Shown here piece after piece: positions 8,345 through 42,686 of a stretch of 42,686 nt of DNA (its first letter is position 1; each line of letters opens with the position of its first letter). The notes below the pieces were generated by a model that did not search any database, was not told the DNA's origin, and worked only from the letters and a program-made list of their open reading frames with translations. This DNA comes from Halobacteriaceae archaeon (GTDB lineage Archaea; Halobacteriota; Halobacteria; Halobacteriales; Halobacteriaceae): contig JBDGTC010000090.1 in assembly GCA_042217215.1 (NCBI GenBank), forward strand, positions 1-42,686, in the 5' to 3' direction. The position numbers and the translations under genes were made by a program.

Positions 8345-8354
8345 TTATATTAAA
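8345..8354 (-). promoter_or_regulatory. Putative TATA box (TTTAATATAA on the minus strand) of the protease pseudogene
   Basis: Centred about 26 nt upstream of ATG 8324. About 60 bp of upstream sequence is alignable with the region upstream of the intact copy. Confidence 0.4.
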
Positions 8355-9768: not shown

Positions 9769-9880
9769 GCGCCCGGCTTGGTCGCCGGAGGGGATGGGCG
9801 GCGGACCTAATCAGTTGTCCCGGCGGTCGCGCGCGGCGCCGGACCGGTATGCCCTTGCCGCGGGCGTCCCGAGGAGGGAT

Positions 9881-10084: not shown

Positions 10085-10150
10085 GTCAGACGGGGTCGGG
10101 AGGACCGCCCCGCCGGTGTCCGTCGGTCGACACCTGCGGATTCCAAACGG

Positions 10151-10156
10151 TTATAT
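10151..10156 (+). promoter_or_regulatory. Putative TATA box (TTATAT)
   Basis: The only AT-rich hexamer in this region. It lies 26-31 nt upstream of GTG 10182, consistent with a leaderless transcript. Confidence 0.35.
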
Positions 10157-10181
10157 CTCGAACTGTGCAACTCCCCCGCAC

Positions 10182-11576: not shown

Positions 11577-11577
11577 C

Positions 11578-12124
11578 ATGCGCGGGACCCTCGTCCGCTC
11601 CCGGGTGGTCGACGACCCGGGCGTCGGCCTCGCGACGGCGCTCGAGCGCTCGCTCACCGGGCGTCCCGGTCGCCGCCGTCCACGCCGACCGGGCGGGCGC
11701 GGACGCGGTGGCGGCCGTCGCCGGCCGCGGCCCGTACCGCCTCGCGCTCTACGAGTCGGGAGACGCGGGCGTCGACGCGCCGGACGCGGCGGTCGGCCCC
11801 GGCGTCCCCGCGGAGGTGCTCGCGGACGACCCCGCGCTGGCCGATCGCTGCCGCGAGCGGGCGCCGGCGGGCGCCGGCGACCCCGGCGAGTCCGCCGACG
11901 CGCTCGCGGCCTTCCTCGAGAACGAGGAGAAGATCGCGGCCATCCAGGAGCGTGCCCGCCGCGAGGCCGAGCGCCGCGCCGCGGAGTGGGGCATCGACGT
12001 CGACGGCGGGGGAGGCGACGCCGGTGCGGGCGGCTCGACCGACCCCGACTCCGGTCCGCACGTGCCGCCGGGCGACGGTGCGGGCGACGGGCCGCTCGGG
12101 GATCCTCCGCCCGACGAGCGGTGA
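11578..12124 (+). CDS. Acidic protein of unknown function downstream of minD, with an apparent +1 frameshift near 11662
   Basis: ATG 11578 lies 1 nt after the minD stop. The first 28 codons (MRGTLVRSRVVDDPGVGLATALERSLTG) all end in G or C. From 11663 the GC3 signal moves to the next frame (VPVAAVHADRAGADAVAAVAGRGPYRLALYESGD...FLENEEKIAAIQERARREAERRAAEWGIDVDGG..*, ending at 12124). That frame has no start codon between 11579 and the junction. Confidence 0.5.
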
Positions 12125-12138
12125 GTCCCCCGTGCTGG

Positions 12139-12248
12139 CGCCCCGGTCTCTCCTCGCGGGCGCCCCGGTCCCTGCTCGCGGGCGGCCCGGTCCCGTTTCC
12201 CCAGTCCCCGGGTCCCTTTTCCCCAGTCCCCGGGTCCCTTTTGGTCAC
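12139..12248. repeat. Five tandem 22-bp units, progressively diverging, upstream of the cupin gene
   Basis: Units start at 12139, 12161, 12183, 12205 and 12227. They read CGCCCCGGTCTCTCCTCGCGGG, CGCCCCGGTCCCTGCTCGCGGG, CGGCCCGGTCCCGTTTCCCCAG, TCCCCGGGTCCCTTTTCCCCAG and TCCCCGGGTCCCTTTTGGTCAC. The shared core is CC(C/G)GGTC(C/T)C. Confidence 0.7.
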
Positions 12249-12266
12249 ACGCGCGCCAGTCGCTCC

Positions 12267-12659
12267 ATGGGCTACCACGTACTCGACCCGGAGGCGCTCG
12301 ACGACTCGCCGACGTTCCCGTGCGACCGGCGCTCGCTGTCCGACGCCGCCGGCCTCGAGGCGCTCCACGCCGCGGTGTACGAGGTGGCGCCCGGCGAGTC
12401 ACTCGCCAGGGGGTACCACTACCACCGCCGGCGGGAGGAGCTGTTCTGGGTGCTTTCCGGCCGGCTGTCCGTCGACACACCCGAGCGCGTCTACGAGGTT
12501 CCGGCGGGGCGGGCGTTCGTCGCGGAGCCGGAGAGCCCCATCGACCCGCACAATCCCGCGGACGCGGCGGACCCGGCCCGTGTCCTCGGCGCCGGCGCCC
12601 CCGCCAGTGACCCCGGGCTCCCGTACGGCGCCGGGGGAGACGGGACCGGCGGCGAGTGA
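12267..12659 (+). CDS. Cupin-domain protein
   Basis: MGYHVLDPEAL...EVAPGESLARGYHYHRRREELFWVLSGRLSVDTPERVYEVPAGRAFV. This matches the G-x5-H-x-H...E and beta-barrel pattern typical of cupins. Confidence 0.7.
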   Translation: MGYHVLDPEALDDSPTFPCDRRSLSDAAGLEALHAAVYEVAPGESLARGYHYHRRREELFWVLSGRLSVDTPERVYEVPAGRAFVAEPESPIDPHNPADAADPARVLGAGAPASDPGLPYGAGGDGTGGE

Positions 12660-12767
12660 CGGGGGCCGGAACCGACGCCACCCGCCGGAGGGCGACGCCG
12701 GCGGGCGAATCGCCCCGCCGGCACGCGGTTCCGCGGGCGGTCGGCTGACGAAAGCACTAAGTGGGTA

Positions 12768-13571
12768 TTGACGAAAATCCCCCCGAAAACCGTGTCTCTC
12801 ACAGGTGTACCCGGCGGGCCCGTGCTTGCGCAGGCCGGGGGGTTGATTCCGCGAGGGTCCCGCGTGGACGTGTTCGCGCAGATCTTCAACGTGTTCCTGG
12901 TTCTGGGCACGCTCGTCGGCGTGGTGGTCATCGGCTACATGGTGTACAACGCGTACAAGTACCGCGCCGACAGGGGCGCGGGCGAGGGGAAGGTCGACCA
13001 GCGGCCCCAGCTCGGGGAGCTCCCGCAGGGCGGTGGGGGCGGACGGAAGCTCTTCCTCTCGTTCACGCTCAGCGCCATCATCGTCCTCTCGCTCATCGCG
13101 TGGACGTACGGCACGCTGCTGTACGTCGAGGGGAAGACCACGATGGACGGGCAGGAGGCCGACCTCGTCGTCGAGGTCACCGGCATGCAGTTCTCCTGGG
13201 AGTACACGTACCCCGACGGTCGGACGACCGACACGCTCCACGTGCCGGAGGACGCGGTGGTCAAGTTGAAGGTGACGTCGGCCGACGTGTTCCACAACTT
13301 CGGCGTGCCCGCGTTGCGCGTGAAGGCCGACGCGATCCCCGGCGAGACCACGGAGACGTGGTTCGTCGCGGAGGAGGAGGGGACCTACGCCGCACACTGC
13401 TATGAGATCTGCGGCGTGGCCCACTCCTACATGGACAGCAAGGTGGTGGTCCACTCTCAGGCCGAGTACGAGGAGTGGGCGTCGCAGGACGACGCGTCCG
13501 GTACCCGGTCCGCGTCGGCGTCCGGGAATAGGAGCGGTGCGAGCGCCATCGCGGCGCCGGCGGGGGTGTAA
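12768..13571 (+). CDS. coxB: Cytochrome c oxidase subunit II (CuA subunit)
   Basis: DVFHNFGVPALRVKADAIPGETTETWF and the CuA ligand motif HCYEICGVAHSYM are present, with two N-terminal TM helices. The exact start is uncertain (non-ATG start in the track). Confidence 0.85.
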   Translation: MTKIPPKTVSLTGVPGGPVLAQAGGLIPRGSRVDVFAQIFNVFLVLGTLVGVVVIGYMVYNAYKYRADRGAGEGKVDQRPQLGELPQGGGGGRKLFLSFTLSAIIVLSLIAWTYGTLLYVEGKTTMDGQEADLVVEVTGMQFSWEYTYPDGRTTDTLHVPEDAVVKLKVTSADVFHNFGVPALRVKADAIPGETTETWFVAEEEGTYAAHCYEICGVAHSYMDSKVVVHSQAEYEEWASQDDASGTRSASASGNRSGASAIAAPAGV

Positions 13572-13577
13572 CACAGC

Positions 13578-16109
13578 ATGTCACGCGACGATGCGGTCAC
13601 GGACGGCGGTGAACTGCCGGCGAGCGAAGCGGCCGGACACGGCGACGGGGGCGGCCACGGGTTCCCCCCGATGTCCTCGCTGAAGCGCTGGCTGGTGACG
13701 ACGAACCACAAGGACGTCGGCATCCTCTACACGGTCACGGCGCTGTTCTTCCTCATCTTCGGGGGCGTGCTGGCGCTCCTCATGCGCCTCCAGCTGTGGA
13801 CGCCCGGCGTGGGCATCCTCTCGAACTCCGCGTACAACCAGGCCGTGACGACCCACGGGCTCATCATGATCTTCTGGTTCCTCTCGCCCTTCGCCTTCGG
13901 GTTCGCGAACTACGTCGTGCCGCTCCAGATCGGCGCGAAGGACCTCGCGTTCCCCCGGCTGAACGCCCTCTCCTACTGGCTCTACCTCTTCTCCGGCGTG
14001 CTGATGGGCATCTCGTACTTCCAGGGATCGACGTTCTCGGGCGGGTGGACGATGTACGCCCCGCTGAACATCCCCGTGTACACGCCGCAGGTGGGCGGGA
14101 GCACGGCCATCCTCGCGCTGCTGATGTTCACCGCGTCGGTGACCGTCGGCTCGGTGAACTTCCTGACGACGATGCACCGCATGCGCGCGGAGGGGCTCAC
14201 GATGCGCCGCCTCCCGCTGTTCACGTGGTCCATCCTCCTGACGGTGTGGATGATGCTGTTCGCGTTCGCGGCGCTGCTCGCGGCGCTGATGATCCTCTCG
14301 GCCGATCGCCTGCTCGGCACCACGTACTTCGCGGCGACGGGCCACTCCGGGGCGCTGCTCTGGACCCACCTGTTCTGGTTCTTCGGTCACCCCGAGGTGT
14401 ACATCGTCTTCTTCCCGGCGCTGGGGGCGATGGCCGAGATCTTCCAGACGTTCACGGGCCGGCGCATCGTCGGCCGGAAGTGGTTCATCGCCGCGATGGT
14501 GCTCGTGGCGCTCCAGTCCTTCGTGGTCTGGATGCACCACATGTTCCTCACGGCGATCAACCTCCAGATCAAGACGCTGTTCATGGCGACGACCATCGGC
14601 ATCTCGCTGCCGTTCGACCTGATGGTCTTCTCGCTCATCTACACGATGATCAAGGGTCGTATCCGGTACACGACGCCGTTCCTGTTCTGTCTTGGTGCGC
14701 TCATTCTGTTCATCGTCGGCGGCATCACCGGCGTCTTTCTGGGCGCCGTGGTGCTCGACTACGAGTTCCGGGGCACCTACTGGGTGGTCGCGCACTTCCA
14801 CTACGTGATGGTCGGCGGCGTCACGGCGCTGGTCGGCGGCCTCTACTACTGGTTCCCGAAGATGACCGGGAAGATGTACGACGAGTTCCTCGGGAAGGTC
14901 CACTTCGCGCTGTACTTCGTCGGGTTCAACCTGCTGTACTTCCCGATGTTCGTCGCCTGGGAGACCCCGCGGCGGGTCTTCGAGTACGAGGCGGCGTACA
15001 CCACCTGGCACCAGCTCGCGACCGTCGGGGCGTTCCTGCTCGGCGGCTCGTTCCTCGTGATGTTCTACAACCTCGGGAGGTCGGCCGTCGCCGGCGAGCC
15101 CGTCGAGGGCAACCCGTGGGAGTATGCGACGACCGCCGAGTGGGCCGTGCCCTCGCCCCCGCCGCTGGAGAACTTCCCCGGCGTCCCGAGCTACGCCTCG
15201 GGGGCGCTCGAGTTCCTCGGGACGGAGGAGGCCGACACGCCGGCCGCGGCCGCCGGCGACGCGGCCGCCACCGACGGCGGACACGCGAGCGCGGACGCGG
15301 CCGGACACGGCGACCACGAGGCGAGCCACGCCAGCATCTGGCCCTTCGTCGTCGGTCTCGGGTCGATGTTCTTCCTCCTCGGGCTCTCCGGGATGACGGG
15401 CGGGACCTTCGCGACGGGGGCGACCGGTATCGTCTACCTCGCCTGTCTCACCGTCGGCGCCGCGGTGGGCTTCGGCGGCCTCGTGGCGATGACGCGCGAG
15501 CCGTTCCACGGCCTCAGCGGCCCGTTCGGCGAGAGCTGGCCGTTCACCGACGTCGAGAACACCAAGCTGGGGATGTGGTTCTTCCTGGCCTCCGACGTCG
15601 TGCTGTTCGGCGGCTTCATCGGCTCGTACATCTTCGTGCGGGTCGCGTCGGGGTGGCAGGCCTGGGAGCTCGTCCCCGGCGACCCGCTCCCGGGGCTGGT
15701 GAACACGTACATCCTGCTCACCTCCAGCTTCGCGGTCGTCCTCGCGATGGACGCCGCGGAGAAGGAGAGCCGGCGCGGGGTGGTCGCGAGCCTCCTGATG
15801 ACGCTCTTCCTCGGGCTGGGATTCCTCGCGAACAAGGGCGTGGAGTGGAACCACCTCTACCACGAGGCCCACGCCGAGTCGTTCCTCGCGCTCCTCTCGC
15901 ACGGCATCGAGGAGTCGACGTACTTCCTCACCACCGGTCTCCACGGGGCGCACGTCATCGTCGGGCTGATCATCACGCTGTACCTGGTCGCCCGCGCCGC
16001 CCGCGGCGCCTACCTCGGGGACAACCGCCCGCTGGAGTACTTCGGGCTGTACTGGCACTTCGTGGACATCGTGTGGCTGTTCCTGTTCCCGCTGTTCTAC
16101 ATCCTCTAG
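13578..16109 (+). CDS. coxA: Cytochrome c oxidase subunit I fused to subunit III
   Basis: 843 aa. The N-terminal roughly 560 aa carry haem-copper oxidase subunit I motifs (WFFGHPEVYI, HHMF, VAHFHYVM). The C-terminal roughly 250 aa resemble subunit III (MWFFLASDVVLFGGF.., HGAHVIVGLI.., YWHFVDIVWLFLF). Confidence 0.9.
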   Translation: MSRDDAVTDGGELPASEAAGHGDGGGHGFPPMSSLKRWLVTTNHKDVGILYTVTALFFLIFGGVLALLMRLQLWTPGVGILSNSAYNQAVTTHGLIMIFWFLSPFAFGFANYVVPLQIGAKDLAFPRLNALSYWLYLFSGVLMGISYFQGSTFSGGWTMYAPLNIPVYTPQVGGSTAILALLMFTASVTVGSVNFLTTMHRMRAEGLTMRRLPLFTWSILLTVWMMLFAFAALLAALMILSADRLLGTTYFAATGHSGALLWTHLFWFFGHPEVYIVFFPALGAMAEIFQTFTGRRIVGRKWFIAAMVLVALQSFVVWMHHMFLTAINLQIKTLFMATTIGISLPFDLMVFSLIYTMIKGRIRYTTPFLFCLGALILFIVGGITGVFLGAVVLDYEFRGTYWVVAHFHYVMVGGVTALVGGLYYWFPKMTGKMYDEFLGKVHFALYFVGFNLLYFPMFVAWETPRRVFEYEAAYTTWHQLATVGAFLLGGSFLVMFYNLGRSAVAGEPVEGNPWEYATTAEWAVPSPPPLENFPGVPSYASGALEFLGTEEADTPAAAAGDAAATDGGHASADAAGHGDHEASHASIWPFVVGLGSMFFLLGLSGMTGGTFATGATGIVYLACLTVGAAVGFGGLVAMTREPFHGLSGPFGESWPFTDVENTKLGMWFFLASDVVLFGGFIGSYIFVRVASGWQAWELVPGDPLPGLVNTYILLTSSFAVVLAMDAAEKESRRGVVASLLMTLFLGLGFLANKGVEWNHLYHEAHAESFLALLSHGIEESTYFLTTGLHGAHVIVGLIITLYLVARAARGAYLGDNRPLEYFGLYWHFVDIVWLFLFPLFYIL

Positions 16110-31213: not shown

Positions 31214-33034
31214 ATGCACCGGGAGCGAAGCGACGGCGGGCGAGCCGCGGCCCCGGCGTGGGCGGTCCTCCTCGCCGTCCTCCTCGCGGGCTACGCCGCG
31301 TACGGGGGTCTCGCCCTCGCGGCGGTGGCCGTCGACGGCGCGCTGGCCGGGGGCGGCGAGGTCACCTCCGTGCCGCCCTGGACGGTCGGCGAGACCGACC
31401 GCGTCGGCGTGAGCCCGGGCCGCACCGCGGGCTTTGCCTTCGCCCGCGTCGACGCCGGCTTCGACTACCGGGACGCGCCCGGGCCCGGTGGTGGCCACAT
31501 GCGCGTCCTCAGCAACGCGGGGGTGTACGCGGCCGACTACGACCGGGACGGGTGGACCGACCTCCTCGCGGTCGGCGGCGAGCGGCCGGTGCTGTTCCGG
31601 AACGCCGGCGGGTCGTTCCAGCGCGCCGACGCCTTGCCCCCGCTCGGGCCGTGGGCCGGCGCCGTCCGGTCCGCGCTCTTCGTCGATTACGACGTCGACG
31701 GCGACCCCGACCTCCTCCTCCTCGCCGACCACCGTGCCCCGCTACTGCTGGAGAACGTCGGCGGCACGTACGAGCGGACGGCGACGTTCGATCGCCCGCT
31801 CGCGGGGTCGCCTTTCGGCGCGACGGCCGCCGACGCGGACGGCGACGGCTGCCCGGACGTCGTCGTCACCCAGGCCGGCGACTGGGACCGGCGGCTCCCG
31901 ATGGGCTTTCACAACTACTCGGCACCGGTGAACGGCGACAACGGTGCGCCCACGGTCCTCTACCGCGGCACCTGCGATGGCTTCGAGCGGGTGCCCCCCG
32001 AGCGCTCGGGCTTCCGCGGTGCGCGGTGGACGCTCGCGGCGTCGTTCGTCGACCTCACGGGTGACGGCCTGCCGGACGTCCACGAGGCCAACGACATCAA
32101 CCACGACGTCGTCTGGGTCAACGAGGGCGACGGCACCTTCCGGCAGGTGGTGCTCCCCGAGCGCACGAACCGCAACGGAATGTCCTCGGAGGTGGCCGAC
32201 GTCACCGGCGACGGCCGCCTCGACGTGTTCGTCACGAACATCCACTATCCACGGTGGGCGATGCGCGAGATCGACGCCGGCCTGCTCGCGAAGGCTCGCG
32301 GGAACAACCTGATCAGTGCCCACGGGAACGGGACGTTCGTCCTCCGCGGCGAGCAGTACGGCGTCAACGCCGGCGGGTGGGGGTGGGCCGCGGTCATCGC
32401 CGACTTCGACAACGACGGCGACGAAGACCTCTTCCACACGACCCGAACCGTCGAGTTCGACTCGCGGGCGGCGCAGTTCGATCCCGGGCAGATCCGGCGC
32501 CTCGAGCGCCGGGCCGAGTACCGGTACCCCCGGGTCTGGTCACGCACCGGTCCGGCACACTTCACGCGCGTCCACGCCGCCAGCTCCGGGTTCGGACCGA
32601 CGAACGGACGCGGCGTCGCCCGCCTGGACTACGACCGCGACGGCGACCTCGACCTCGCGGTGGCCGTCGCGCTCCCCCACGACGCCACGCCGAACGCCAC
32701 CGTCCCGTACGCCCTCTACGAGAACCGCGAGCGGCGGCGCGACGCCGTGCAGGTGCGCGTGCTGGGTCGGGACGGCTCGCTCGCGGGCGCCTACGGTGCG
32801 ACGGTCTCGGTCGCGGCGGCGAACGTCACTCAGACCCGCCTCGTCCACGCGCGCTCCGACTTCCTCTCCCAGGACTCGCGGCTCGTCCACGTCGGCATCG
32901 GGAACGCCACGTCGGCCGACGTGACCGTGACGTGGCGGGGCGGTGCGAGTCTCTCGATCGGTGACGTACCGGCCGACACGCGACTCGTCGTGACGCCCGA
33001 GGGCGTGCGCAACCGGGTCGACCTCGCCGGGTGA
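31214..33034 (+). CDS. CRTAC1-like protein A: N-terminal membrane anchor, FG-GAP/VCBS repeats, ASPIC/UnbV-like C-terminal domain
   Basis: Repeated DYDRDGWTDLL, DYDVDGDPDLLLL, DADGDGCPDVVV, DLTGDGLPDVH, DVTGDGRLDVFVTN, DFDNDGDEDLF and DYDRDGDLDLAV motifs. The C-terminus GATVSVAAANVTQTRLVHARSDFLSQDSRLVHVGIGNATSADVTVTWRGG matches the UnbV/ASPIC pattern. Confidence 0.85.
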   Translation: MHRERSDGGRAAAPAWAVLLAVLLAGYAAYGGLALAAVAVDGALAGGGEVTSVPPWTVGETDRVGVSPGRTAGFAFARVDAGFDYRDAPGPGGGHMRVLSNAGVYAADYDRDGWTDLLAVGGERPVLFRNAGGSFQRADALPPLGPWAGAVRSALFVDYDVDGDPDLLLLADHRAPLLLENVGGTYERTATFDRPLAGSPFGATAADADGDGCPDVVVTQAGDWDRRLPMGFHNYSAPVNGDNGAPTVLYRGTCDGFERVPPERSGFRGARWTLAASFVDLTGDGLPDVHEANDINHDVVWVNEGDGTFRQVVLPERTNRNGMSSEVADVTGDGRLDVFVTNIHYPRWAMREIDAGLLAKARGNNLISAHGNGTFVLRGEQYGVNAGGWGWAAVIADFDNDGDEDLFHTTRTVEFDSRAAQFDPGQIRRLERRAEYRYPRVWSRTGPAHFTRVHAASSGFGPTNGRGVARLDYDRDGDLDLAVAVALPHDATPNATVPYALYENRERRRDAVQVRVLGRDGSLAGAYGATVSVAAANVTQTRLVHARSDFLSQDSRLVHVGIGNATSADVTVTWRGGASLSIGDVPADTRLVVTPEGVRNRVDLAG

Positions 33035-33064
33035 ACGGGTCGGCCGACCGCGGCGTCGCGGTCC

Positions 33065-34090
33065 TCAGCACTCCAGGGCCGGGTTCGAGCGGGCGAACAG
33101 GCCCCGGGGATTGACCCGGAACAGCCACGCGTGCAGGCCGTAGTGGCGCGGCTGGGCGGCCGCGGGGGAGCGGGCGTCGGCGGCGTCACTGTCGGCGGCG
33201 TCACCACGTGCGTCCACGTGGCCGTCCGCGGGGGCGTGGAAGCGCTGGCCGAACAGCGTCGGTGCGGCGTCGACGGCTCCCGCGGGCACCCACCACTCGG
33301 CGCCCGCGAGCACGTACGACCAGTTCGAGCCCATCACGTAGAGGAGCACCGGCGGGGCGGTCGGATCGGTGCCGCCCGTGGTGGCGGTGCCCTCGCGCAC
33401 GAAGGGCACCCCGTAGTGGCCGTCGCCGAGGGCGACGCAGTGCTCGGTGTTGCGATAGCCCGCCTCGACGGCCGCCGAGCCGACGACGTACTGCGAGAGG
33501 CGCTCGCGCACGCGGCGGAGCCGGTCGGCGAAGGGCGGCGGCTCGAGACCGCGGTTCGACACCGCGAAGGTGCCGGCCGGATTGTCGGCGTAGAGCCAGG
33601 CGTGGAGGCCGTAGTGGCTGATACCCAGTCCGTGGTCGGCGGCGGGGGCGTGAAAGCGCCGACCGAAGAGTGCCGGCGCGGCGTCGACGGCCTCCGCGGG
33701 GACCCGCCACTCCACGCCGGCCAGGTGGTAGGTGCCGTCGGAGGCGAGATCGTAGAACAGCACCGCCGGCCGGGCCGGGTCGAGGTCGGTCGTGGACGCG
33801 CGCTCGGGCCGGTACAGCGGCGTCCCGAGGCGGAGCGTCGCCTCGTCGGTGCTGCCCACGTACCGGTGGACGGTGCGGTACCCGTCCGCGAGCGCCGCGG
33901 ACACGTCGCGGTAGCGATCGAGTGGCGCCGTCCGCTCACGCACCGCCGCCACGTCGACCGGCTCCGGGCCGCCCGTCAGTGTCCTCACCGCGCCACAGCC
34001 GGTCGCGCCGCCGAGCCCCGCGACCCCGCCCGCGGCACCGACGCGCCGGAGTACGTCGCGCCGGGTCGGGGCGCCACCATCGGGGGTCAC
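33065..34090 (-). CDS. Tat-signal (probable lipo-)protein made of two tandem copies of an uncharacterised His-motif domain
   Basis: GTG start at 34090 overlaps the upstream TGA (GTGA). The signal is TRRDVLRRVGAAGGVAGLGGATGC. Both halves share GYR..DP..P.VL.Y......Y.LAG.EW.VPA.AVDAAP.LFG.RFHAPA..H....HYGLHAWL...NP.G.FA.SN..LE. Confidence 0.7.
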   Translation of the reverse strand: MTPDGGAPTRRDVLRRVGAAGGVAGLGGATGCGAVRTLTGGPEPVDVAAVRERTAPLDRYRDVSAALADGYRTVHRYVGSTDEATLRLGTPLYRPERASTTDLDPARPAVLFYDLASDGTYHLAGVEWRVPAEAVDAAPALFGRRFHAPAADHGLGISHYGLHAWLYADNPAGTFAVSNRGLEPPPFADRLRRVRERLSQYVVGSAAVEAGYRNTEHCVALGDGHYGVPFVREGTATTGGTDPTAPPVLLYVMGSNWSYVLAGAEWWVPAGAVDAAPTLFGQRFHAPADGHVDARGDAADSDAADARSPAAAQPRHYGLHAWLFRVNPRGLFARSNPALEC

Positions 34091-35907
34091 GGTTCCCCCG
34101 CCGCAGCGACGGAGTGCCACCCGAGCGCGGCGGGCGCACTGGGCCGGGGGACGCGCTCGACTGCACCGTCCGGGTGGACGACCACGTGCCCGGCGGCCAC
34201 GTCCCTGAACACGCGCGTCGTGCCGTCCGGCCAGACCACCCGGAGCCGGTCCACGACTTCGTCCTCGCCGAGGCCGACGTGCAGGACGCGGGACTCCTGG
34301 GAGAGGAAGTCGGCGCGCGCGTTCGCGACCCGCAACGTGGACTCGCCGTCGACGACGGTAGTGACGCGGGCCCCCAGCGTCGTCGCGTCGTCCTCGCCAC
34401 TCGCGACGGTCACCTGGAGACTGTTGCCCGGGGCGCCGCGGTTTTCGTAGAGGGCGTAGGCGTCGCCGTCGTCCGCGACCACGAGGTCGAGGTCGCCGTC
34501 GCGGTCGTAGTCGAGTTGCGCCACGCCGCGGCCGTTCATCCTGTCGAAGCCGGCCGCCGACGCTGCGACGGCGGTGAACCCGTCGCCGGTGCCCTCCCAG
34601 ACCGCGAGCGGCGTGTCTCGCCGGGTGAACCGGAGCTGTCCCCCGTTCGACGTGATCGAGGACTTCTCGTTGTTCGTGTGGACGAGGTCGCGGTCGCCAT
34701 CGTCGTCGAGGTCGGCGATGACCGCGGCCCAGCCCCACAGCGCCGGGGACTGCCGGACGCCGTACGCCGACGCCCGGTTCACGAAGGTGCCGTTGCCGCG
34801 GTTGAGCAGCAAGGTGTTCCCGCGGTGGCGAGGGCTGTCGTGGCGGGCCTTCCGGAGGAAGAGGCCGCCCGTGTCCCGCGCGACGTCGCCGCCGTCCATC
34901 GGGTCGCCGATGTTCGTCACGAACACGTCGAGGCGGCCGTCGCCGTTCACGTCCGCCACCTCCGAGGACATCCCGTTGCGGTCGGTCTCGTCGCCGAGTC
35001 GCGTGGGTCGGAAGGTTCCGTTCCGCTGGTTTACGTAGAGGTAGTCCTCGTTGTAGTCGTTCGCGACGTGGATGTCGGGCCAGCCGTCGCCCGTGAAGTC
35101 GACCATCGAGGCGGCGAGGCTCCACCGCTCGCCGGTGATTCCGGCCGTCGTCCCGTTCACCCGCTCGAACCCCTCGCAGGTCCCGCGGAGGAGGATGTTC
35201 GGCTCGCCGTTGTCGTCGGTGACGTTCCCGACGCTCGACGGGTCGTGGTACCCGACGGGCGTGCGGTCGGCCCAGTCGCCGTCCTGGTAGACGAAGGCGT
35301 CCGGGCAGCCGTCGCGGTTGTAGTCGCCCGCGGTCGCCCCGATGGGCCACCGCTGGAGCGACACGTTCTCGAGCACGTCGTCGACGCTGAAGGTCCCGCC
35401 GTCGTTGTGGAGCAGTATCGGGTGGGCGCTGCGCCGGTGGCCGGAGCCGGTCGTCGCGTTCGTCGCCGTGCCGCCTCCGCCCGTGCTGGTGTTCGGCGGC
35501 GTGTAGTCGCCCCGCGGCACACCCGGGTCGACGAGGACCAGGAGGTCGCGCCACCCGTCGGCGTCGTAGTCGACGAAGAGGACGCCGTGGATCCGCCGCG
35601 CGTCGAGCGGCGGCAGGTCGCCGGAGCGGACGAACCGGCCGCCACGGTTCTCGAACAGGACCGGCCGCCTCCCGCCGACGGCGAGCACGTCCTGCCACCC
35701 GTCGCGGTCGTAGTCCGCCACGTAGACGCCCGCGTTCGTGTTGCTGATGCCGCTGCCGACACCGGTGTACTCCAGTCCGACGTCGTCGGCCACGTCCGCG
35801 AAGGTCAGCCCGGCCGTCCCGCCTGCCGGCGCCATCAGCCCCATCGCGGCCGCCGCGCCGAGGAGTGCCACCGCGAGCCCGGCGACGACGAGGTATCCCT
35901 CGCGCAT
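34087..35907 (-). CDS. CRTAC1-like protein C (more divergent paralog)
   Basis: Start is MREGYLVVAGLAVALLGAAAAMGL (ATG 35907). It has the same FG-GAP/VCBS repeat series and an UnbV-like end (GARVTTVVDGESTLRVANARADFLSQESRVLHVGLGEDEVVDRLRVVWPDG). The 376-codon Arg-rich N-terminal extension of ORF 34087..37035 is rejected. Confidence 0.85.
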   Translation of the reverse strand: MREGYLVVAGLAVALLGAAAAMGLMAPAGGTAGLTFADVADDVGLEYTGVGSGISNTNAGVYVADYDRDGWQDVLAVGGRRPVLFENRGGRFVRSGDLPPLDARRIHGVLFVDYDADGWRDLLVLVDPGVPRGDYTPPNTSTGGGGTATNATTGSGHRRSAHPILLHNDGGTFSVDDVLENVSLQRWPIGATAGDYNRDGCPDAFVYQDGDWADRTPVGYHDPSSVGNVTDDNGEPNILLRGTCEGFERVNGTTAGITGERWSLAASMVDFTGDGWPDIHVANDYNEDYLYVNQRNGTFRPTRLGDETDRNGMSSEVADVNGDGRLDVFVTNIGDPMDGGDVARDTGGLFLRKARHDSPRHRGNTLLLNRGNGTFVNRASAYGVRQSPALWGWAAVIADLDDDGDRDLVHTNNEKSSITSNGGQLRFTRRDTPLAVWEGTGDGFTAVAASAAGFDRMNGRGVAQLDYDRDGDLDLVVADDGDAYALYENRGAPGNSLQVTVASGEDDATTLGARVTTVVDGESTLRVANARADFLSQESRVLHVGLGEDEVVDRLRVVWPDGTTRVFRDVAAGHVVVHPDGAVERVPRPSAPAALGWHSVAAAGEP

Positions 35908-36105
35908 GCCCGGTTCAGCGGCCGCCCGTCCGTGAGTCCTGGACCGCGGTATCGGGGGCTTTGTTAACGGCCGGGCACGCCCCGTCGCGGGCGGGCCCGG
36001 GTCCGGACTGGGCCGGCGGCCACGGGGCGAGGGCGCGCCGGTCGGCATCAAGCCCCCGCATATCCGGTCCCGGCGGTCATGGCGGGTCGGAGGTGACCCC
36101 TGGGC

Positions 36106-37065
36106 ATGCCGGTCGTCGAGGCAAACGGGGTGACGAAGCGCTACGGCGAGGCGGTCGCACTCGGCGGCCTCGACCTCGCCGTCGACGCGGGCGAGATCCA
36201 CGGGCTCGTCGGACCGAACGGCTCCGGGAAGACCACCGCCCTGCACGCGGTGCTCGGGTACGCTCGTCCCACGGCCGGGACGGTCCGCGTCTTCGGCGAC
36301 CCGCCCGGCGCGCACGCGGAGCGGGTCGGCGTGGTGCCCGAGGGCTACGGGGTGTGGGAGCGGTTCACGGGAGCCGAGCACGTGGCCTTCGCGGCGGCAG
36401 CGGCGGGGCCCGGCGGGGACGCATCCCCCGACGGCGGAAGTGCCGGCGAGCCCGGCGTCGACGCCGCGACGACGGACCCCGCCGCGTTCCTCGAGCGCGT
36501 CGGGCTCCGCGGCGCCGCCGACCGCCGGGCTGGCGGCTACTCCGCCGGCATGGTGAAGCGCCTGATCCTCGCGATGGCGCTCGCCGGTGACCCCGACCTG
36601 CTGGTCCTCGACGAGCCGTTCGCCGGCGTGGACCCGCTCGCCGCCCTCGCGGTGCGGCGGGTGCTCCGCGCGGAGCGCTCGCGCGGGACGACGGTGCTGT
36701 TCTCGACCCACGACTTCGGCCACGCCGAGGCGGTGTGTGACCGCGTGGGGCTCCTCCGCGACGGTCGCCTCGTCGCCGAGCGGTCGGGCCACACGGGGGG
36801 ACCCACGGCTCGCCTCGGGCTCGCGGTGCGCGGTGACGTCGACGCGGCGCGGGCGGCCGCGGCCGGGGTGCGCGGGGTCGAGTCGGTCCGCGTCGCAGAT
36901 CGGACGGACGGGCGACTCGTCGCGAGGTGCGTCCCCTCGGCGGAGCTGTCGGTGCTCGTGGCCATCGCGGACCACCCCGACGTCGCGTCGGCGAGCCTCG
37001 ACGACCCATCGCTGGAGGCAGCGTTCGTCGAACACGTCCGCGGGGAGGCGGGGTCGCCGACGTGA
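36106..37065 (+). CDS. ABC-2-type transporter ATP-binding protein
   Basis: Walker A GPNGSGKTT, a degenerate signature YSAGMVKRL and Walker B LLVLDEPFAGVD are present. A low-complexity insertion (AAAAAGPGGDASPDGGSAGEPG) sits before the signature. Confidence 0.85.
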   Translation: MPVVEANGVTKRYGEAVALGGLDLAVDAGEIHGLVGPNGSGKTTALHAVLGYARPTAGTVRVFGDPPGAHAERVGVVPEGYGVWERFTGAEHVAFAAAAAGPGGDASPDGGSAGEPGVDAATTDPAAFLERVGLRGAADRRAGGYSAGMVKRLILAMALAGDPDLLVLDEPFAGVDPLAALAVRRVLRAERSRGTTVLFSTHDFGHAEAVCDRVGLLRDGRLVAERSGHTGGPTARLGLAVRGDVDAARAAAAGVRGVESVRVADRTDGRLVARCVPSAELSVLVAIADHPDVASASLDDPSLEAAFVEHVRGEAGSPT

Positions 37066-37877
37066 GCTGGCGCCTCGTCGCCCGTCACGACGCCCGCGAC
37101 CTCGCCCGCTCGCGGCTGGGGTGGCTCCTCCCCGCCCTGACGGTGGCGGGACTCGGCGGCGTCGTCGTGGCGTACCCGGTCGTGGCGGCGCGTCCGGCCG
37201 CCGACACCTCGCTCGTGTATCTGGCGACGCTCGCCCGGTGGCTCGTCCCGGCCGCCGCGCTCGTGACCGGGTACGGCGCGGTGGTGCGACACCGCGAGGC
37301 CGGACGGCTCGCCCTCCTCCTGGGGCTCTCGCTCGACCGGCGGGCCGTGGCCGCGGGCGCCCTGGTCTCGCGGACCGGCGCGGTGGCGGCCGCGACTGCC
37401 GCGGGCCTCGCCGTCGCCGGTCTCGCCACCGCGGTCCGGTACGCGGCGTGGTCTCCGCGGCAGTTCCTGGCCGTCGGGGCGCTCACCGTGCTCCTCGGGG
37501 TCGCCGTCGGCGCGCTGGCGGTCGGCGTGTCGCTGGCGAGTGGCTCCGCCGCCCGGGCCGTCACGGTGCTGGTCGGCGCGTTCGTCTGCTTCCTGTTCGC
37601 GTGGGACCTCCTCCCGGCGGGGCTGTACTTCGTGGCGTTCGGGTCGTTCCCGGGGAACGACGTCCCGCCGGACTGGTACCTCCTCCTCTCGCGGCTCAAC
37701 CCCGCGAACGCGTACACCGCCGCCGTCACCGCGGCGCTCCCGACCCTGAAGACCGGCCTCGGCGCGGCCCGGCCCGCGTACCTCACCGGGTGGTTCGCCG
37801 TGGCCGTCCTCGTCGGCTGGTCGGTGCTCGCGCCGCTCGCCGGGTACGTGCGCTTCGCGCGCGCCGAACTCGGCTGA
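37062..37877 (+). CDS. ABC-2 family permease (NosY-like)
   Basis: The GTG start overlaps the ATPase TGA (GTGA at 37062-37065). About 6 TM helices. A ..LLSRLNPANAY.. segment is typical of ABC-2 permeases of the type annotated as multi-copper enzyme maturation components. Confidence 0.7.
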   Translation: MSWRLVARHDARDLARSRLGWLLPALTVAGLGGVVVAYPVVAARPAADTSLVYLATLARWLVPAAALVTGYGAVVRHREAGRLALLLGLSLDRRAVAAGALVSRTGAVAAATAAGLAVAGLATAVRYAAWSPRQFLAVGALTVLLGVAVGALAVGVSLASGSAARAVTVLVGAFVCFLFAWDLLPAGLYFVAFGSFPGNDVPPDWYLLLSRLNPANAYTAAVTAALPTLKTGLGAARPAYLTGWFAVAVLVGWSVLAPLAGYVRFARAELG

Positions 37878-38033
37878 GCCACCGGCCGACCCCGCCGGCG
37901 AGGGCCACCCGTCCGAGGCGACCGCGAGCCGACCGTGCCCCCTGGAACCAACCCCCAGACCTCGCCGCCGTCTTGCGATCGGCCGACCGGCGATACCGTC
38001 AGGCCTATTAGTGTGCATACCCGTCTCAGAGCC

Positions 38034-38999
38034 ATGGGAACCGCCGAACTGACGATCGAGGATGCGAGTGCGCGGTGTGACGACATTCTGGAGGAGATCG
38101 AGGCAGCGGTCATCGGCGACCGCGAGTTCTTCGAGACCGTCCTGATGGGTGTCCTGGGCCGCGGTCACGTCCTCCTCGAGGACGTGCCGGGCACGGGGAA
38201 GACGCTGACGGCGCGGAGTTTCGCCAACGCGCTGGGGCTGTCCTTCTCCCGCATCCAGTTCACGCCGGACCTGCTGCCGGCCGACGTGACGGGGACGCAC
38301 ATCTTCAACGAGAAGGAGCGCGAGTTCGAGTTCAACAAGGGCCCCATCTTCTCGAACATCGTGCTGGCCGACGAGATCAACCGCGCGCCGCCGAAGACGC
38401 AGGCGGCGATGCTCGAGGCCATGGGCGAGAAGCAGGTCACCGTCGAGAACGAGACCCGCCAGCTCCCGGAGCCGTTCTTCGTCATCGCGACGCAGAACCC
38501 GGTCGAGCAGGAGGGGACCTTCCCGCTCCCCGAGGCACAGGTCGACCGCTTCCTCGCCAAGAGCTCCCTGGGCTACCCCGACGCCGAGGGCGAGAAACTG
38601 CTCCTCGAGCGCCGCGCCGGCCGCAAGGAGCAGGCCCCCACCGCGGGCCGCGTCCTCGAGGAGGGCGAGGTCCTCGGGCTGCAGGACGTCCCGGAGACCG
38701 TCGAGGTTCACGAGGACGTGCTCTCCTACCTCGTCGACCTCTCGCAGGCCTCCCGCGAGGACCACCGCGTCCGCGTCGGCATCTCCCCGCGCGGGACCCA
38801 GCGCCTCTTCGAGGCGTCCCGCGCCCGCGCCGTCATCGAGGGTCGCGAGTACGTGACCCCCGACGACGTGAAGGACATCGCGCGCCCGGTGATGGCCCAC
38901 CGCCTCGTCCTCACCGCCGAGGCCCAGGTCAACGACGTCGCGAAGGACGAGGTCGTCGGCGACCTCCTCGACCAGGTCCCGGTCCCGACCGTCGAGTAA
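38034..38999 (+). CDS. MoxR-family AAA+ ATPase
   Basis: Motifs include HVLLEDVPGTGKT (Walker A), RIQFTPDLLPADVTG, VLADEINRAPPKTQAAMLEAM (Walker B region), FFVIATQNPVEQEGTFPLPEAQVDRF and ISPRG. 321 aa from ATG 38034. Confidence 0.9.
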   Translation: MGTAELTIEDASARCDDILEEIEAAVIGDREFFETVLMGVLGRGHVLLEDVPGTGKTLTARSFANALGLSFSRIQFTPDLLPADVTGTHIFNEKEREFEFNKGPIFSNIVLADEINRAPPKTQAAMLEAMGEKQVTVENETRQLPEPFFVIATQNPVEQEGTFPLPEAQVDRFLAKSSLGYPDAEGEKLLLERRAGRKEQAPTAGRVLEEGEVLGLQDVPETVEVHEDVLSYLVDLSQASREDHRVRVGISPRGTQRLFEASRARAVIEGREYVTPDDVKDIARPVMAHRLVLTAEAQVNDVAKDEVVGDLLDQVPVPTVE

Positions 39000-39109
39000 C
39001 GCGCGCCGCCTCCATCCTCGCTTCTCTTCTCGCCCCGTAGCCGTCGCTCCGTTCGGTCCGGCGGCCCGTGCGAAGGGGCTATACGTCTCTGCACCGTCGG
39101 GACGGGCAC

Positions 39110-40849
39110 ATGCGACGCGAGGCCGTCGTGCTCGCAGCCGTCCTCCTGGTCGGGTACTCGCTGTACGGCGGGCTGTTCCTGGCCGCCGGCGCCGCACAGA
39201 GCGCACTCGCCCCGTCGACGTCCTATCCCACCGACCCGATGCTCGCGGCGGAGAACCGGTCGGTCGGGCGCGCCGGCACGTTCGACTTCGCGCCCGCCGA
39301 GGCCGGGTTCGACTACGAGTACGAGGTGTCGGCGACGGGCGGGATGATGCGGACGACCAACGCGGGCGTCTACACCGCCGACTACGACGGCGACGGGTGG
39401 CAGGACCTCCTCGCCGTCGGCGGCGAGCACCCGGTACTGTTCCGGAACACCGGCGGGTCGTTCGTGCGGTCCGGCGCGCTCCCGCCGATCGCCGGCGAGG
39501 TGCGCTCCGCGCTCTTCCTCGACCACGACGGGGACGGCGACCAGGACCTCCTGTTCCTGGCGGACGGCCGGGCGCCCCAGTTGCTCGAGAACGTCGGTGG
39601 CGCCTTCGAACACGCCGATGCCTTCGAGGACTCGCTCCCGCTCGCGTGGGGCGCGACCACGGCCGACTACGACCGGGACGGCTGTCTCGACCTCTTCGTC
39701 TACCAGTACGGCAACTGGACGAAGCGCCTGCCCGAGGGGTACGGGTCGGGCAACTACTCGGTCCCGGTGAACGAGGACAACGGGAACCCCGACCACCTCT
39801 ACCGCGGGACGTGTGGCGACTTCGAGCACGTGAACGCGACCGCGGCGGGCATCCGGGGCGCGCGGTGGACGCTCGCGGCGTCGTTCGTCGACCTCACGGG
39901 CGACGGCCTGCCGGACATCCACCAGGCCAACGACATCAACTACGACGTCCTGTACGTCAATCAGGGCGACGGCACCTTCCGGCAGGTGTTGCTCCCCGAG
40001 CGCACGAACCGGAACGGGATGTCCTCCGAGGTCGCCGACGTCACCCGCGACGGCCGGCTCGACGTGTTCGTCACGAACATCTTCTACCCGAAGTGGGCCA
40101 TGCGCCAGATCAACGCCGGGCTCCTGCTGAAGGCCCGCGGGAACAACCTCATCGCCAACCACGGTAACGGCACGTTCGTGATGCGCGGCGACCAGTACGG
40201 TATCAACGTCGGCGGGTGGGGGTGGGCCGCGGTGATCGCCGACCTCGACAACGACGGCGACCAGGACCTCTTCCACACCACCCGGAACATGTCCTTCGAG
40301 CGCCGCGACGTCTACTTCACCGACGCGGAGAAGCGACGGCTCAACAGCCACGAGTTCTACCACTACCCGGTCCTGTACGCGCGCGCCGGGCAGACGTTCA
40401 CGGGGGTCAGCGCGCAGGCCTCGGGCTTCCCCCAGCTGAACAGCCGCGGCGTGGCGCGACTCGACTTCGACCGCGACGGCCGGCTCGATCTGGCCGTCGC
40501 CACCACCGGGGAGTACCGGCTCTTCGAGAACCGGATGGACCGCGGGCGGGCGGTCCAGGTGCGGGTCCTCGGCCCCGGCGGCTCGCCCGCCGGCGCGCTC
40601 GGGGCCACCGTAACCGTCGCGGCCCCCACGCTCCCGAACGGCAGCGTCGAGCGGCGCGTCCACGCGCGCACCGACTTCCTCTCCCAGGACTCGCGGCTGG
40701 TCCACGTCGGCGTCGGGAACGCCTCCACCGTCGACGTCACTGTCCGCTGGCCCGACGGCACGGAGCGGACGTTTCGGGACGTCGCCGTCGGCGGGCGCGT
40801 CGTCGTCTCGCCCGACGGCGTCGAGACCCGCTACGATTTCGGCGACTGA
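39110..40849 (+). CDS. CRTAC1-like protein D (close paralog of A)
   Basis: MRREAVVLAAVLLVGYSLYGG.. anchor. The repeat series is collinear with A, including long identical peptide runs (RWTLAASFVDLTGDGLPD, GDGTFRQV, LPERTNRNGMSSEVADVT). UnbV-like end is RVHARTDFLSQDSRLVHVGVGNASTVDVTVRWPDG. Confidence 0.85.
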   Translation: MRREAVVLAAVLLVGYSLYGGLFLAAGAAQSALAPSTSYPTDPMLAAENRSVGRAGTFDFAPAEAGFDYEYEVSATGGMMRTTNAGVYTADYDGDGWQDLLAVGGEHPVLFRNTGGSFVRSGALPPIAGEVRSALFLDHDGDGDQDLLFLADGRAPQLLENVGGAFEHADAFEDSLPLAWGATTADYDRDGCLDLFVYQYGNWTKRLPEGYGSGNYSVPVNEDNGNPDHLYRGTCGDFEHVNATAAGIRGARWTLAASFVDLTGDGLPDIHQANDINYDVLYVNQGDGTFRQVLLPERTNRNGMSSEVADVTRDGRLDVFVTNIFYPKWAMRQINAGLLLKARGNNLIANHGNGTFVMRGDQYGINVGGWGWAAVIADLDNDGDQDLFHTTRNMSFERRDVYFTDAEKRRLNSHEFYHYPVLYARAGQTFTGVSAQASGFPQLNSRGVARLDFDRDGRLDLAVATTGEYRLFENRMDRGRAVQVRVLGPGGSPAGALGATVTVAAPTLPNGSVERRVHARTDFLSQDSRLVHVGVGNASTVDVTVRWPDGTERTFRDVAVGGRVVVSPDGVETRYDFGD

Positions 40850-41115
40850 AGCGGGCGACCCCCGACCGGACCGACCGCCGCGGCACCGACTTATAGGCCT
40901 TCGGGCCGGGGCCGTCACGCCGGGTGCGTCCCCGACGCGACGCCGCGGTCGTGCCCCGCGACGTATCCGGGAGCTGGTCAGTGCTTCTCCCGCAGAAGTA
41001 CCGGGTAGGAGGCTTCTGTCGCAGATTTCACCGTCCTTCACGGGAGACGTGAAATAACCGAGAGCGGTCGAGTGTCCCGGCCGGTCGCCGCCCGCCGCCG
41101 GCCCCGGAGGGACAG

Positions 41116-41124
41116 TTTTATTAA
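41116..41124 (+). promoter_or_regulatory. Putative TATA box (TTTTATTAA)
   Basis: An AT-rich box centred about 27 nt upstream of ATG 41147, consistent with a leaderless mRNA. Confidence 0.35.
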
Positions 41125-41146
41125 CGACCATGGAGGTTACAGGAGT

Positions 41147-42550
41147 ATGCCCCAGCGGATTCCGCGGCGAACGGTGCTCGGCATGGGTGCTGCCGGTCTG
41201 GCCGGCCTCGCTGGCTGTAGCGGCGACGGCGGCGACAGCGGCCCCAACAACAGCACGGAACAGGGGACGCCGACCCTCACCGAGTCCCCGAAGGGCTTCC
41301 AGATCAACGTCGGCATGATCCGCCCCACCCAGGGCAACCTGTCCGCCCTCGGTGACGCCATGAAGAAGACGCGGGACTTCACCGTCGAGCACATCGACGC
41401 CATCCCGACGTCCCACACGCTCAACATGCCGGTGAAGGACACGGACGGCACCCCCGAGGACGCGGTGCGTGCGGCCCAGGAACTCGTCGACGAGGGCTTC
41501 CCCGCCATCGTCGGGCCGGCCTCCGACGAGGCCACGAAAGCCGTCATCGACGTCCTCACCGAGAACAAGGTGATGGGCATCTCGCCGTTCTGTGCCTCCG
41601 TCGACGTCCTCAACATGGACGACCACGTCAAACACAAGAACTTCGACGAGCCGACCCAGATGCTCTACTCCATCGCCCCGACCACCGACGGCCTCGGGAC
41701 GGGGTTCGCCCAGCCGCTCGCCCTGGCGCGGGTCGGCGACGCCGCCATCCTCTACGAGGACAACCTCTACGGGAACGGCGTCGTGAGTGGCCTCAAGACG
41801 GCCTTCGAGCCCAGACAGCTCTCGCTCACCGGCGAGCACGCGCTCCCCCTCTCGGCGGACTCCTACACGTCACAGATCGAGGCCGCGGTCGGGAACGACC
41901 CCGGCGTCCTCGTGCTCGCGGCGAGCCCGGGCGTCGGCAAGCAGGTCCTCTCGGAGTACTACGCGGACTTCGGTGACACCCCCGTCGCCATGGTCGACCG
42001 GCTCCACATGCGGTCGATGCCGGACCAGGTCTCCTCGGACGTCGCCGGCGACATCGCCGTCGCCCCGACGACCGTCTGGATGGAGGAGGGGAGAGGCACC
42101 CCGACCGCCTCGGAGGGCGGCCCCTCGATGCGCGCGCCGTTCCCGCAGGCCTGGAAGTACTTCTTCGACGGCGAGAAGCCCACGCTCCACTCCGCGTACG
42201 TCAACGAGGCCATCATGGTCCCGTTCCTCTGTGCGGTCTCGGCCGGGGAGGACTACCAGACCGGCGTCTACCTCAGCCGCGCCATTCGGGACGTCATCAA
42301 CCCCCAGGATGACGCGCCGGTCCTCCCGGCCGGCGTCCACTTCGACACGTTCTTCCAGCGGGACTTCAAGAACAACCCGTTCCTCCTGAAGATTCAGGGT
42401 TCCATCAACAACTGGAACGGCGTGACCGGGAACACCGACTTCGCGATGTCCACGGGGACGATGGCCGCACGCACCACGCCGTGGGAGTTCGCCCCCGACG
42501 CGCCCTACGGCTTCCGCCGCTTCGACGCCTTCAAGGGCTTCGATTCATGA
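41147..42550 (+). CDS. Tat-lipoprotein substrate-binding protein, LivJ-like (branched-chain amino acid / Peripla_BP_6 type)
   Basis: MPQRIPRRTVLGMGAAGLAGLAGC signal. It is followed by ..INVGMIRPTQGNLSALGDAM..DTDGTPEDAVRAAQELVDEGFPAIVGPASDEATKAV.., typical of type I binding proteins. Confidence 0.75.
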   Translation: MPQRIPRRTVLGMGAAGLAGLAGCSGDGGDSGPNNSTEQGTPTLTESPKGFQINVGMIRPTQGNLSALGDAMKKTRDFTVEHIDAIPTSHTLNMPVKDTDGTPEDAVRAAQELVDEGFPAIVGPASDEATKAVIDVLTENKVMGISPFCASVDVLNMDDHVKHKNFDEPTQMLYSIAPTTDGLGTGFAQPLALARVGDAAILYEDNLYGNGVVSGLKTAFEPRQLSLTGEHALPLSADSYTSQIEAAVGNDPGVLVLAASPGVGKQVLSEYYADFGDTPVAMVDRLHMRSMPDQVSSDVAGDIAVAPTTVWMEEGRGTPTASEGGPSMRAPFPQAWKYFFDGEKPTLHSAYVNEAIMVPFLCAVSAGEDYQTGVYLSRAIRDVINPQDDAPVLPAGVHFDTFFQRDFKNNPFLLKIQGSINNWNGVTGNTDFAMSTGTMAARTTPWEFAPDAPYGFRRFDAFKGFDS

Positions 42551-42632: not shown

Positions 42633-42686
42633 ATGGCATTGAGTCGCGACAGCGTGGGTGCCCTGACCATCGCGTTGCTGGCGGTG
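42633..42686 (+). CDS. Start of a further gene, truncated by the window end (possibly the cognate permease)
   Basis: ATG followed by MALSRDSVGALTIALLAV (hydrophobic). Only 18 codons are visible. Confidence 0.3.
   Translation, partial: MALSRDSVGALTIALLAV

Follow-up and report, generated by a model that had tools for sequence, protein, structure and literature searches.

The window analyzed here is a 42,686-nt stretch of DNA from a Halobacteriaceae archaeon (contig JBDGTC010000090.1), and the subject of this work is a cluster of seven genes at positions 31214-40849 (about 9.6 kb) of this stretch. The G+C content of the window is about 73%; regulators of the HTH_10 and DmsR type and archaeal pilin N-termini are encoded, as seen in scans of Pfam and open reading frames (ORFs), and database relatives of the cluster proteins are annotated as Halobacteria. 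No matches were obtained when the window was scanned against Rfam and for tRNAs. A first-pass annotation had described three propeller proteins of the CRTAC1 type (A, C, and D), a protein with a twin-arginine translocation (Tat) signal, an ABC-2 ATPase and permease, and a MoxR ATPase, and had proposed that they form one dedicated system. All seven ORFs were found where it had placed them. Pfam profile searches backed its domain assignments for the CRTAC1 trio, the ABC-2 pair, and MoxR, and both GTGA start/stop overlaps as well as the 198-bp divergent spacer could be read from the sequence. The cluster and the genes that follow it are composed as follows:

31214-33034, plus strand: CRTAC1-family paralog A, a seven-bladed FG-GAP propeller with UnbV/ASPIC domain (Pfam, neighbor-joining tree, motifs).
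33065-34090, minus strand: Tat lipoprotein 'Tat2dom', 341 amino acids (aa), two copies of an uncharacterized His-rich domain of about 140 aa, no Pfam family.
34087-35907, minus strand: CRTAC1-family paralog C, upstream of the Tat lipoprotein gene and overlapping it by 4 bp (GTGA) (Pfam).
35908-36105: divergent intergenic region of 198 bp between the C/Tat2dom operon and the ABC-2 operon (sequence).
36106-37065, plus strand: ABC transporter ATPase, ABC-2 or type V class (ABC_tran, PF00005).
37062-37877, plus strand: ABC-2 permease with about six transmembrane segments (ABC2_membrane_2, PF12679, E 3e-25), GTGA overlap with the ATPase stop.
38034-38999, plus strand: MoxR AAA+ ATPase, first gene of module 2 (AAA_3, 222.6 bits, E 2e-66; AAA_lid_2, 77.4 bits).
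39110-40849, plus strand: CRTAC1-family paralog D, embedded in a probable MoxR/DUF58 operon (Pfam, synteny).
41072-42550, plus strand: Peripla_BP_6 solute-binding protein, in synteny with D at the MoxR locus (Pfam).
42633-42686, plus strand: first 18 codons of a DUF4129 gene cut by the window end (N-terminal match to L086).

The prokaryotic CRTAC1 family, an FG-GAP/VCBS propeller with an UnbV/ASPIC domain, is named after vertebrate cartilage acidic protein 1. Such propellers occur widely among bacteria and archaea, and we know of no prokaryotic member with a known function. In NCBI records, the homologs of A, C, and D bear the name 'CRTAC1 family protein'; to the vertebrate CRTAC1 of solved structure (9etn), sequence similarity is marginal (E 1e-6 over about 100 residues). 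FG-GAP_3 matched A, C, and D with E-values of 1e-40 to 1e-42 in five to seven stretches each, and the C-terminal UnbV_ASPIC domain (PF07593) was detected with E-values of 2e-11, 1e-14, and 2e-13. Seven Ca-type motifs of the form Dx[DNT]x[DN]GxxD are present in each protein, consistent with seven blades. The three proteins had been called membrane-anchored; a single N-terminal hydrophobic segment and no C-terminal anchor was found in each of them, but a cleaved signal peptide would explain this segment equally well.

The region falls into three parts, namely module 1 (33065-37877), module 2 (38034 to beyond 42686), and paralog A, which stands apart. The best explanation of the whole, to which we assign a probability of about 0.6, is a composite of two independently conserved modules and an extra paralog. 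The adjacency of modules 1 and 2 is specific to this genome: outside the window they never occurred in the same locus, neither in four MoxR/D loci nor in 13 other lipoprotein loci. Conservation of the gene neighborhood was thus found for C with the Tat protein and the ABC-2 genes, and for MoxR followed by D, but not for the two sub-clusters together. These data largely refute the proposal that all seven genes serve one system that uses MoxR and the ABC-2 pair for the maturation, export, or assembly of the three surface propellers. All parts are present and tightly packed, each sub-cluster is conserved, and the PFNA cluster offers a precedent for a secreted repeat protein encoded with MoxR, DUF58, and transglutaminase (PMC8430577). 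Nevertheless, a single system has become very unlikely, since MoxR homologs in other genera sit with DUF4129 and DUF58 and without a propeller, and since A has no partner of its own.

The same holds for a general machine for maturation or export of the propeller family. A scan with the three paralogs, using one genome per species, yielded 80 CRTAC1 loci, seven of them in Halobacteria (39-50% identity) and 73 in bacteria, mostly Acidobacteriota. When every window protein was compared by tblastn with these 80 loci, no MoxR, lipoprotein, or ABC-2 permease was found nearby; the sole matches were generic ABC ATPases with about 25% identity. Therefore, CRTAC1-family genes in general do not need these partners, and the partners are not a general maturation or export machine for the family.

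Fourteen lipoprotein-encoding loci, the window included, were compared to follow module 1; the metagenome scan with the lipoprotein profile gave six loci, owing to two strict peptide patterns. C, the lipoprotein, and the ABC-2 ATPase and permease travel together in other Halobacteria. A CRTAC1 gene lies at a distance of up to about 3.5 kb from the lipoprotein gene in 12 of the 14 loci. The ABC-2 pair is present in five (the window, L091, L097, L105, and, in decayed form, L099), and in six (L082, L087, L088, L089, L092, and L093) a gene encoding DUF7405, a Tat lipoprotein of about 440 aa (e.g., L082:10996-12345), is located between lipoprotein and CRTAC1 genes. The ABC-2 pair and DUF7405 were never found in the same locus. 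Two loci (L091 and L105) additionally carry a gene for a high-potential iron-sulfur protein (HiPIP).

At least five gene orders or orientations were observed: lipoprotein-DUF7405-CRTAC1, lipoprotein-CRTAC1, CRTAC1-lipoprotein, and two versions with the ABC-2 pair. A CRTAC1 gene followed by the lipoprotein gene with a 4-bp overlap is seen in the window, L098, and L105. Locus L105, from a Haloglomus metagenome-assembled genome, repeats the window architecture, with an ABC-2 operon divergent from an operon that ends with C-type CRTAC1 and lipoprotein genes joined by an ATGA overlap. L091 differs from the window in gene order and has a tandem of three CRTAC1 genes besides the ABC-2 pair and the lipoprotein gene. 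L097 encodes the ABC-2 pair and the lipoprotein with no CRTAC1 gene on the available flank, a layout which suggests that the transporter partners the lipoprotein rather than the propeller. In the literature searched, module 1 is undescribed, and no partnership that joins CRTAC1 to a His-rich lipoprotein and an ABC-2 pair came up. Directly downstream of the lipoprotein gene in L091, a DUF7289 and VWA protein is encoded, followed by a second DUF7289 gene (10856-13303).

Adjacent genes need not be functionally coupled, and the arrangement could have arisen as the members of an expanding paralog family cluster and synteny is inherited. CRTAC1 genes do form tandem arrays in the window, L091, L099, and L105; many of the loci come from related hypersaline metagenome lineages; and in module 2 the Peripla_BP_6 proteins of syntenic loci share only about 30% identity. 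We nevertheless regard an absence of coupling as unlikely. The adjacency of lipoprotein and CRTAC1 genes survives at least five rearrangements, 4-bp start/stop overlaps recur, and the ABC-2 pair stays with the lipoprotein even in L097, where the CRTAC1 gene is missing. Furthermore, the lipoproteins are only 37-48% identical to that of the window; hence, the separations are old.

Module 2 was traced through D, whose closest database relatives (58-62% identical) are encoded on three metagenome contigs (L081, L085, and L086). The order there is MoxR, D ortholog, Peripla_BP_6, DUF4129, DUF7269/DUF58, and DUF7519. In L086, MoxR is located directly upstream of the D ortholog, as in the window, and the contig ends inside the DUF4129 gene; in L085, MoxR is cut by the contig end. 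DUF58 follows DUF4129 in L081 and L085. The MoxR orthologs upstream of D orthologs are 67-77% identical to the window MoxR. From this syntenic order, a DUF4129 start was predicted after Peripla_BP_6, and an ORF was indeed found at 42633. It begins 83 bp after the Peripla_BP_6 gene, and the window stops 54 bp into it; its start MALSRDSVGALTIALLAV is identical in 11 of 18 residues to MELTQNSAGALAIAFLAV, the start of the L086 DUF4129 gene. The Peripla_BP_6 protein itself is only about 30% identical between the window and the three contigs and may be fast-evolving or replaced.

On replicons of Halomontanus, Haloarcula, and Halobaculum, MoxR homologs with 65-72% identity are immediate neighbors of DUF4129, DUF58, and a small hypothetical gene, and a propeller is absent. 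Therefore, the window MoxR in all likelihood belongs to the familiar MoxR/DUF58/DUF4129 operon. It most likely serves the usual DUF58-type partners, and a D-type propeller and a solute-binding protein have become lodged between MoxR and DUF4129 in this lineage. MoxR is not to be read as a propeller chaperone from adjacency alone.

A propeller gene between a MoxR gene and a vWA-like DUF58 gene also recalls the MoxR-vWA-beta-propeller 'ternary' conflict systems, which act in defense, and a weak match to PF20030 (bpMoxR) was obtained with 32 bits. In ternary systems, the propeller is fused C-terminally to the vWA protein, often with a GXXXTAKS P-loop (PMC7159879). Here, no vWA fusion and no GXXXTAKS motif is present: the MoxR P-loop reads PGTGKT, AAA_3 reaches 222 bits, and the propeller, presumably secreted, is a protein of its own. 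PADLOC reported no system, with generic P-loop matches only, for the ABC ATPase. Judged by these defining features, a ternary system is refuted, and MoxR, D, and DUF58 are extremely improbable as such a system.

Among the propellers, A is 65% identical to D and 52% identical to C. In the neighbor-joining tree, A is sister to D, and both group with the orthologs from the MoxR loci; C groups with the lipoprotein-abutting propellers of L091 and L099, and that of L098 is placed nearby; a third clade consists of the propellers linked to DUF7405. With C, the L105 propeller shares 53% identity. A, which has no conserved partner of its own, is a recent duplicate of D. Elsewhere in the window, an ORF at 8749-9810 (minus strand) combines an archaeal type IV pilin N-terminus with a weak FG-GAP_3 match (E 1e-4) and would encode a pilin-like FG-GAP protein.

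Tat2dom is the core partner in module 1. Its description as a Tat protein with two tandem unknown domains proved accurate, as no Pfam family was found and the repeats are 44% identical to each other (E 1e-31). The twin-arginine signal was recognized by TIGR01409 with 17.4 bits (cut-off 16.7) and is followed by a lipobox Cys, so that the protein can be specified further as a lipoprotein. In the alignment of the family, G31 and C32 are invariant and the RR pair is nearly invariant; Pfam TAT_signal was detected in 10 of 32 members. Halobacteria export most secreted proteins through Tat; therefore, the signal is no evidence of a cofactor. There are 63 close homologs (37-48% identical), whose named sources are all Halobacteria and none of which has a Pfam domain. 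A shorter homolog is encoded by Halosimplex amylolyticum.

An exhaustive profile search with the lipoprotein domain returned 1,719 cluster representatives, most of them single-domain proteins of 160-210 aa. In some proteins (P0195, P0198, P0201, and P0202), the domain is fused to DUF7282 surface repeats or to Amidohydro_2. Ten representatives were sampled, and all source labels present read 'hypothetical protein'. Searches of plasmids with the lipoprotein and the permease gave single-domain or distant relatives only, with no CRTAC1 nearby. AlphaFold (AF2) models reached a pLDDT (predicted local distance difference test) of 85 for the whole lipoprotein and 88 for the C-terminal repeat; in each modelled repeat, a short hairpin of helices packs against a sheet with about five strands. 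Foldseek searches of the PDB with the whole and the single-domain models gave no significant fold match. The M23 (LytM/lysostaphin) fold was considered and rejected, the best E-value being 7e-3 for the whole model (probability 0.23, TM-score 0.16-0.30) and 2.7 for the single domain. The domain family is without annotation among the labels checked, without a Pfam family, and without a structural relative in the PDB.

Residue conservation was computed over 169 distant domain copies and is given in the numbering of the C-terminal domain:

His triad: H106 70%, H131 76%, H135 89%.
E80 91%; W137 95%; N142-P143 93-94%.
Position 100: half of the copies have Asp, the others mainly Glu, Asn, or Gln, and 7% have His.
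Cys33 and Cys156: 76-79%.

Judged from the residues conserved, this pattern of His, acidic residues, and Cys would fit a metal or catalytic site together with a disulfide. In the window protein, the histidines that come into question for such a site are H285, H291, H316, and H320.

The ABC-2 pair shows the features of an ABC-2 (type V) exporter, namely an ABC_tran ATPase coupled to an ABC2_membrane permease. Pairs that adjoin the lipoprotein gene are the closest relatives of the window pair, with 38-55% identity for the ATPase and 35-46% for the permease. The nearest ATPases are those beside Tat2dom in L091, L097, and L105 (49-55% identical), and the permeases of these three loci account for the 35-46% range. 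Divergent orientation of the ABC-2 pair and the Tat2dom-bearing operon was also observed in these three loci; a comparison of their spacers with that of the window revealed no common 8-mer. A homolog search with the permease gave two distant matches only. In the PDB, the permease matched NosY as the sole hit (E 3e-4, full length). NosF was among the matches of the ATPase, not as the best one, and the ATPase is no closer to NosF than to the nucleotide-binding domains of ABCA or Rv1218c. Genes for M48-family metalloproteases were noted near related ABC-2 pairs, both with the lipoprotein (L097:4933-6030 and 9114-10394) and without it (L096:8219-9214).

Hints at the chemistry of module 1 come from its relatives. 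The HiPIP-type [4Fe-4S] Tat lipoprotein gene lies directly upstream of a C-type CRTAC1 gene in L105 (5375-5788) and L091 (5880-6260), and the two copies are 53% identical to each other. The candidate (137 aa) matched solved HiPIPs, with an E-value of 8e-7 for PDB 3h31 and all four cluster cysteines aligned. The C-terminal motifs of DUF7405 recall DyP/EfeB peroxidases. Statistically, DyP identity found no support: hhalign against Escherichia coli EfeB aligned the expected C-terminal motif region with a probability of 0.6% and an E-value of 0.1, and a PDB profile search with DUF7405 returned no DyP. In bacteria, CRTAC1 genes flanked by hydrazine-synthase-like haem proteins have been reported from Planctomycetota and Acidobacteriota (PMC12758564). 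The HiPIP, the DUF7405 motifs, the haem-flanked bacterial CRTAC1 genes, and the likeness to NosY lead us to weakly favor a metal-dependent, possibly redox-linked surface complex for module 1.

An involvement in extracellular glycan use, for instance of sulfated polysaccharides, has to be weighed against such a complex. The propeller would bind or cleave the glycan, the lipoprotein would act as a metal-dependent hydrolase or modifier, and the ABC-2 pair would handle the product. Several loci have a suitable environment: sulfatases and an FGE-sulfatase gene around L087, L098, and L099; GFO_IDH_MocA oxidoreductases and AP_endonuc_2 around L087, L099, and L100; MR_MLE near L082, L084, and L087; and an amylase and GH15 near L084. 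Additionally, the lipoprotein domain occurs fused to Amidohydro_2, and two Amidohydro_2 genes are located immediately upstream in L082 (7468-9821). These tallies of carbohydrate genes stand without a background rate, however, and Pfam scans revealed no carbohydrate-active genes in the window flanks and no CAZy-type domain in any module protein. As the HiPIP genes are also easier to reconcile with redox chemistry than with hydrolysis, a role in glycan use seems doubtful.

For the metal-dependent complex, the following arrangement can be envisaged. The lipoprotein would bind a metal and, on the membrane's external face, act together with the Ca-binding propeller. The ABC-2 pair would partner the lipoprotein rather than the propeller; it might either export a small substrate or cofactor or, as NosFY does, drive a conformational step from within the cytoplasm. 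A link of the chemistry to redox reactions is probable. We tentatively propose, as a possibility with some credit, that module 1 is a reduced form of an undescribed haloarchaeal extracytoplasmic metalloenzyme system. In such a system, the propeller and the His-triad lipoprotein would be the catalytic or binding unit, HiPIP or DyP-like DUF7405 in sister lineages would be the electron source, and the NosFY-like ABC-2 pair would energize or supply the unit from the cytoplasm.

Several points weigh against the picture of two conserved modules, one of them probably metal-dependent and redox-linked. HiPIP and DUF7405 genes are both missing from the window module, so that the redox reading depends on its relatives. 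Metal binding by the lipoprotein is suggested by residue conservation only, in a family with no solved homolog. A CRTAC1 gene is missing from two lipoprotein loci (L097 and L100), and most CRTAC1 genes come without the lipoprotein. In phylogenetic terms, the 14 loci are not independent: those of the DUF7405 type, six in number, are related, and the number of independent observations is therefore below 14. In module 2, L081 has an inserted SBP_bac_5 gene that separates MoxR from the D ortholog, and the recurrence of MoxR followed by D could have been inherited as synteny in a single family-level lineage. Finally, the trees are neighbor-joining trees with midpoint roots and without support values.

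If correct, the metalloenzyme reading would provide the first functional handle on the prokaryotic CRTAC1 family. The comparison has revealed a haloarchaeal CRTAC1 subfamily in constant company with a lipoprotein from a large, unannotated His-triad domain family; its further partners alternate between the ABC-2 pair, with or without HiPIP, and DUF7405. What results is a short list of genes open to testing, together with a candidate metal site, instead of a lone 'hypothetical protein'. Module 1 is thus a concrete lead into prokaryotic CRTAC1 biology and does not overturn current understanding.

Outside the cluster, further features were recorded in the window. Two low-GC islands (about 1000-3500 and 6000-8700) have a G+C fraction of about 0.556 as compared to about 0.73 elsewhere and may be foreign or non-coding DNA; the one long ORF tested from each (1730-2875 and 7477-8199) has no Pfam match. 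Cytochrome oxidase subunits I and III are apparently fused in an 845-aa ORF at 13572-16109 (plus strand), which follows a COX2 gene at 12660-13571.

Comparison with known systems places the two modules differently. A, C, and D share with the prokaryotic CRTAC1 family the full domain set and the seven Ca-type blade motifs, whereas the company of a His-rich lipoprotein and an ABC-2 pair sets C apart. In NosDFYL, a machinery driven by an ABC-2 transporter, copper is loaded into the propeller of N2O reductase. Module 1 resembles it in three respects: its ABC-2 ATPase/permease pair, with NosY as the one solved relative of the permease; a lipoprotein that probably carries metal ligands, as judged from its residues (compare NosL); and a presumably secreted propeller (compare NosZ). 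It differs in that the propeller is of the Ca-binding FG-GAP type and has no twin-arginine signal. Homologs of NosD, NosL, and NosZ were not detected by Pfam or NCBIfam in the seven cluster genes, in 24 other window ORFs, or in the replicate loci, and an NCBIfam scan gave no Nos assignment. The term 'NosY-like' used for the permease in the first-pass annotation hence applies at the family level but not to a complete Nos system.

The CRTAC1 loci of Planctomycetota and Acidobacteriota likewise combine a CRTAC1-family propeller with exported redox proteins and ABC substrate-binding proteins; there, the partners are haem c proteins, whereas a His-rich lipoprotein with HiPIP or DUF7405 is found here, and the host belongs to another domain of life (PMC12758564). 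Module 2 shares with MoxR/DUF58/DUF4129 operons a MoxR of the AAA_3 type and, in the syntenic loci, the DUF4129, DUF58, and DUF7519 genes that follow. It differs by the insert of a CRTAC1 propeller and Peripla_BP_6, which is absent from the three other haloarchaeal genera. In the bifidobacterial PFNA cluster (fn3, MoxR, duf58, tgm), a secreted repeat protein is encoded together with MoxR, DUF58, and a transglutaminase (PMC8430577); module 2 likewise contains a presumably secreted repeat protein inside a probable MoxR/DUF58 operon.

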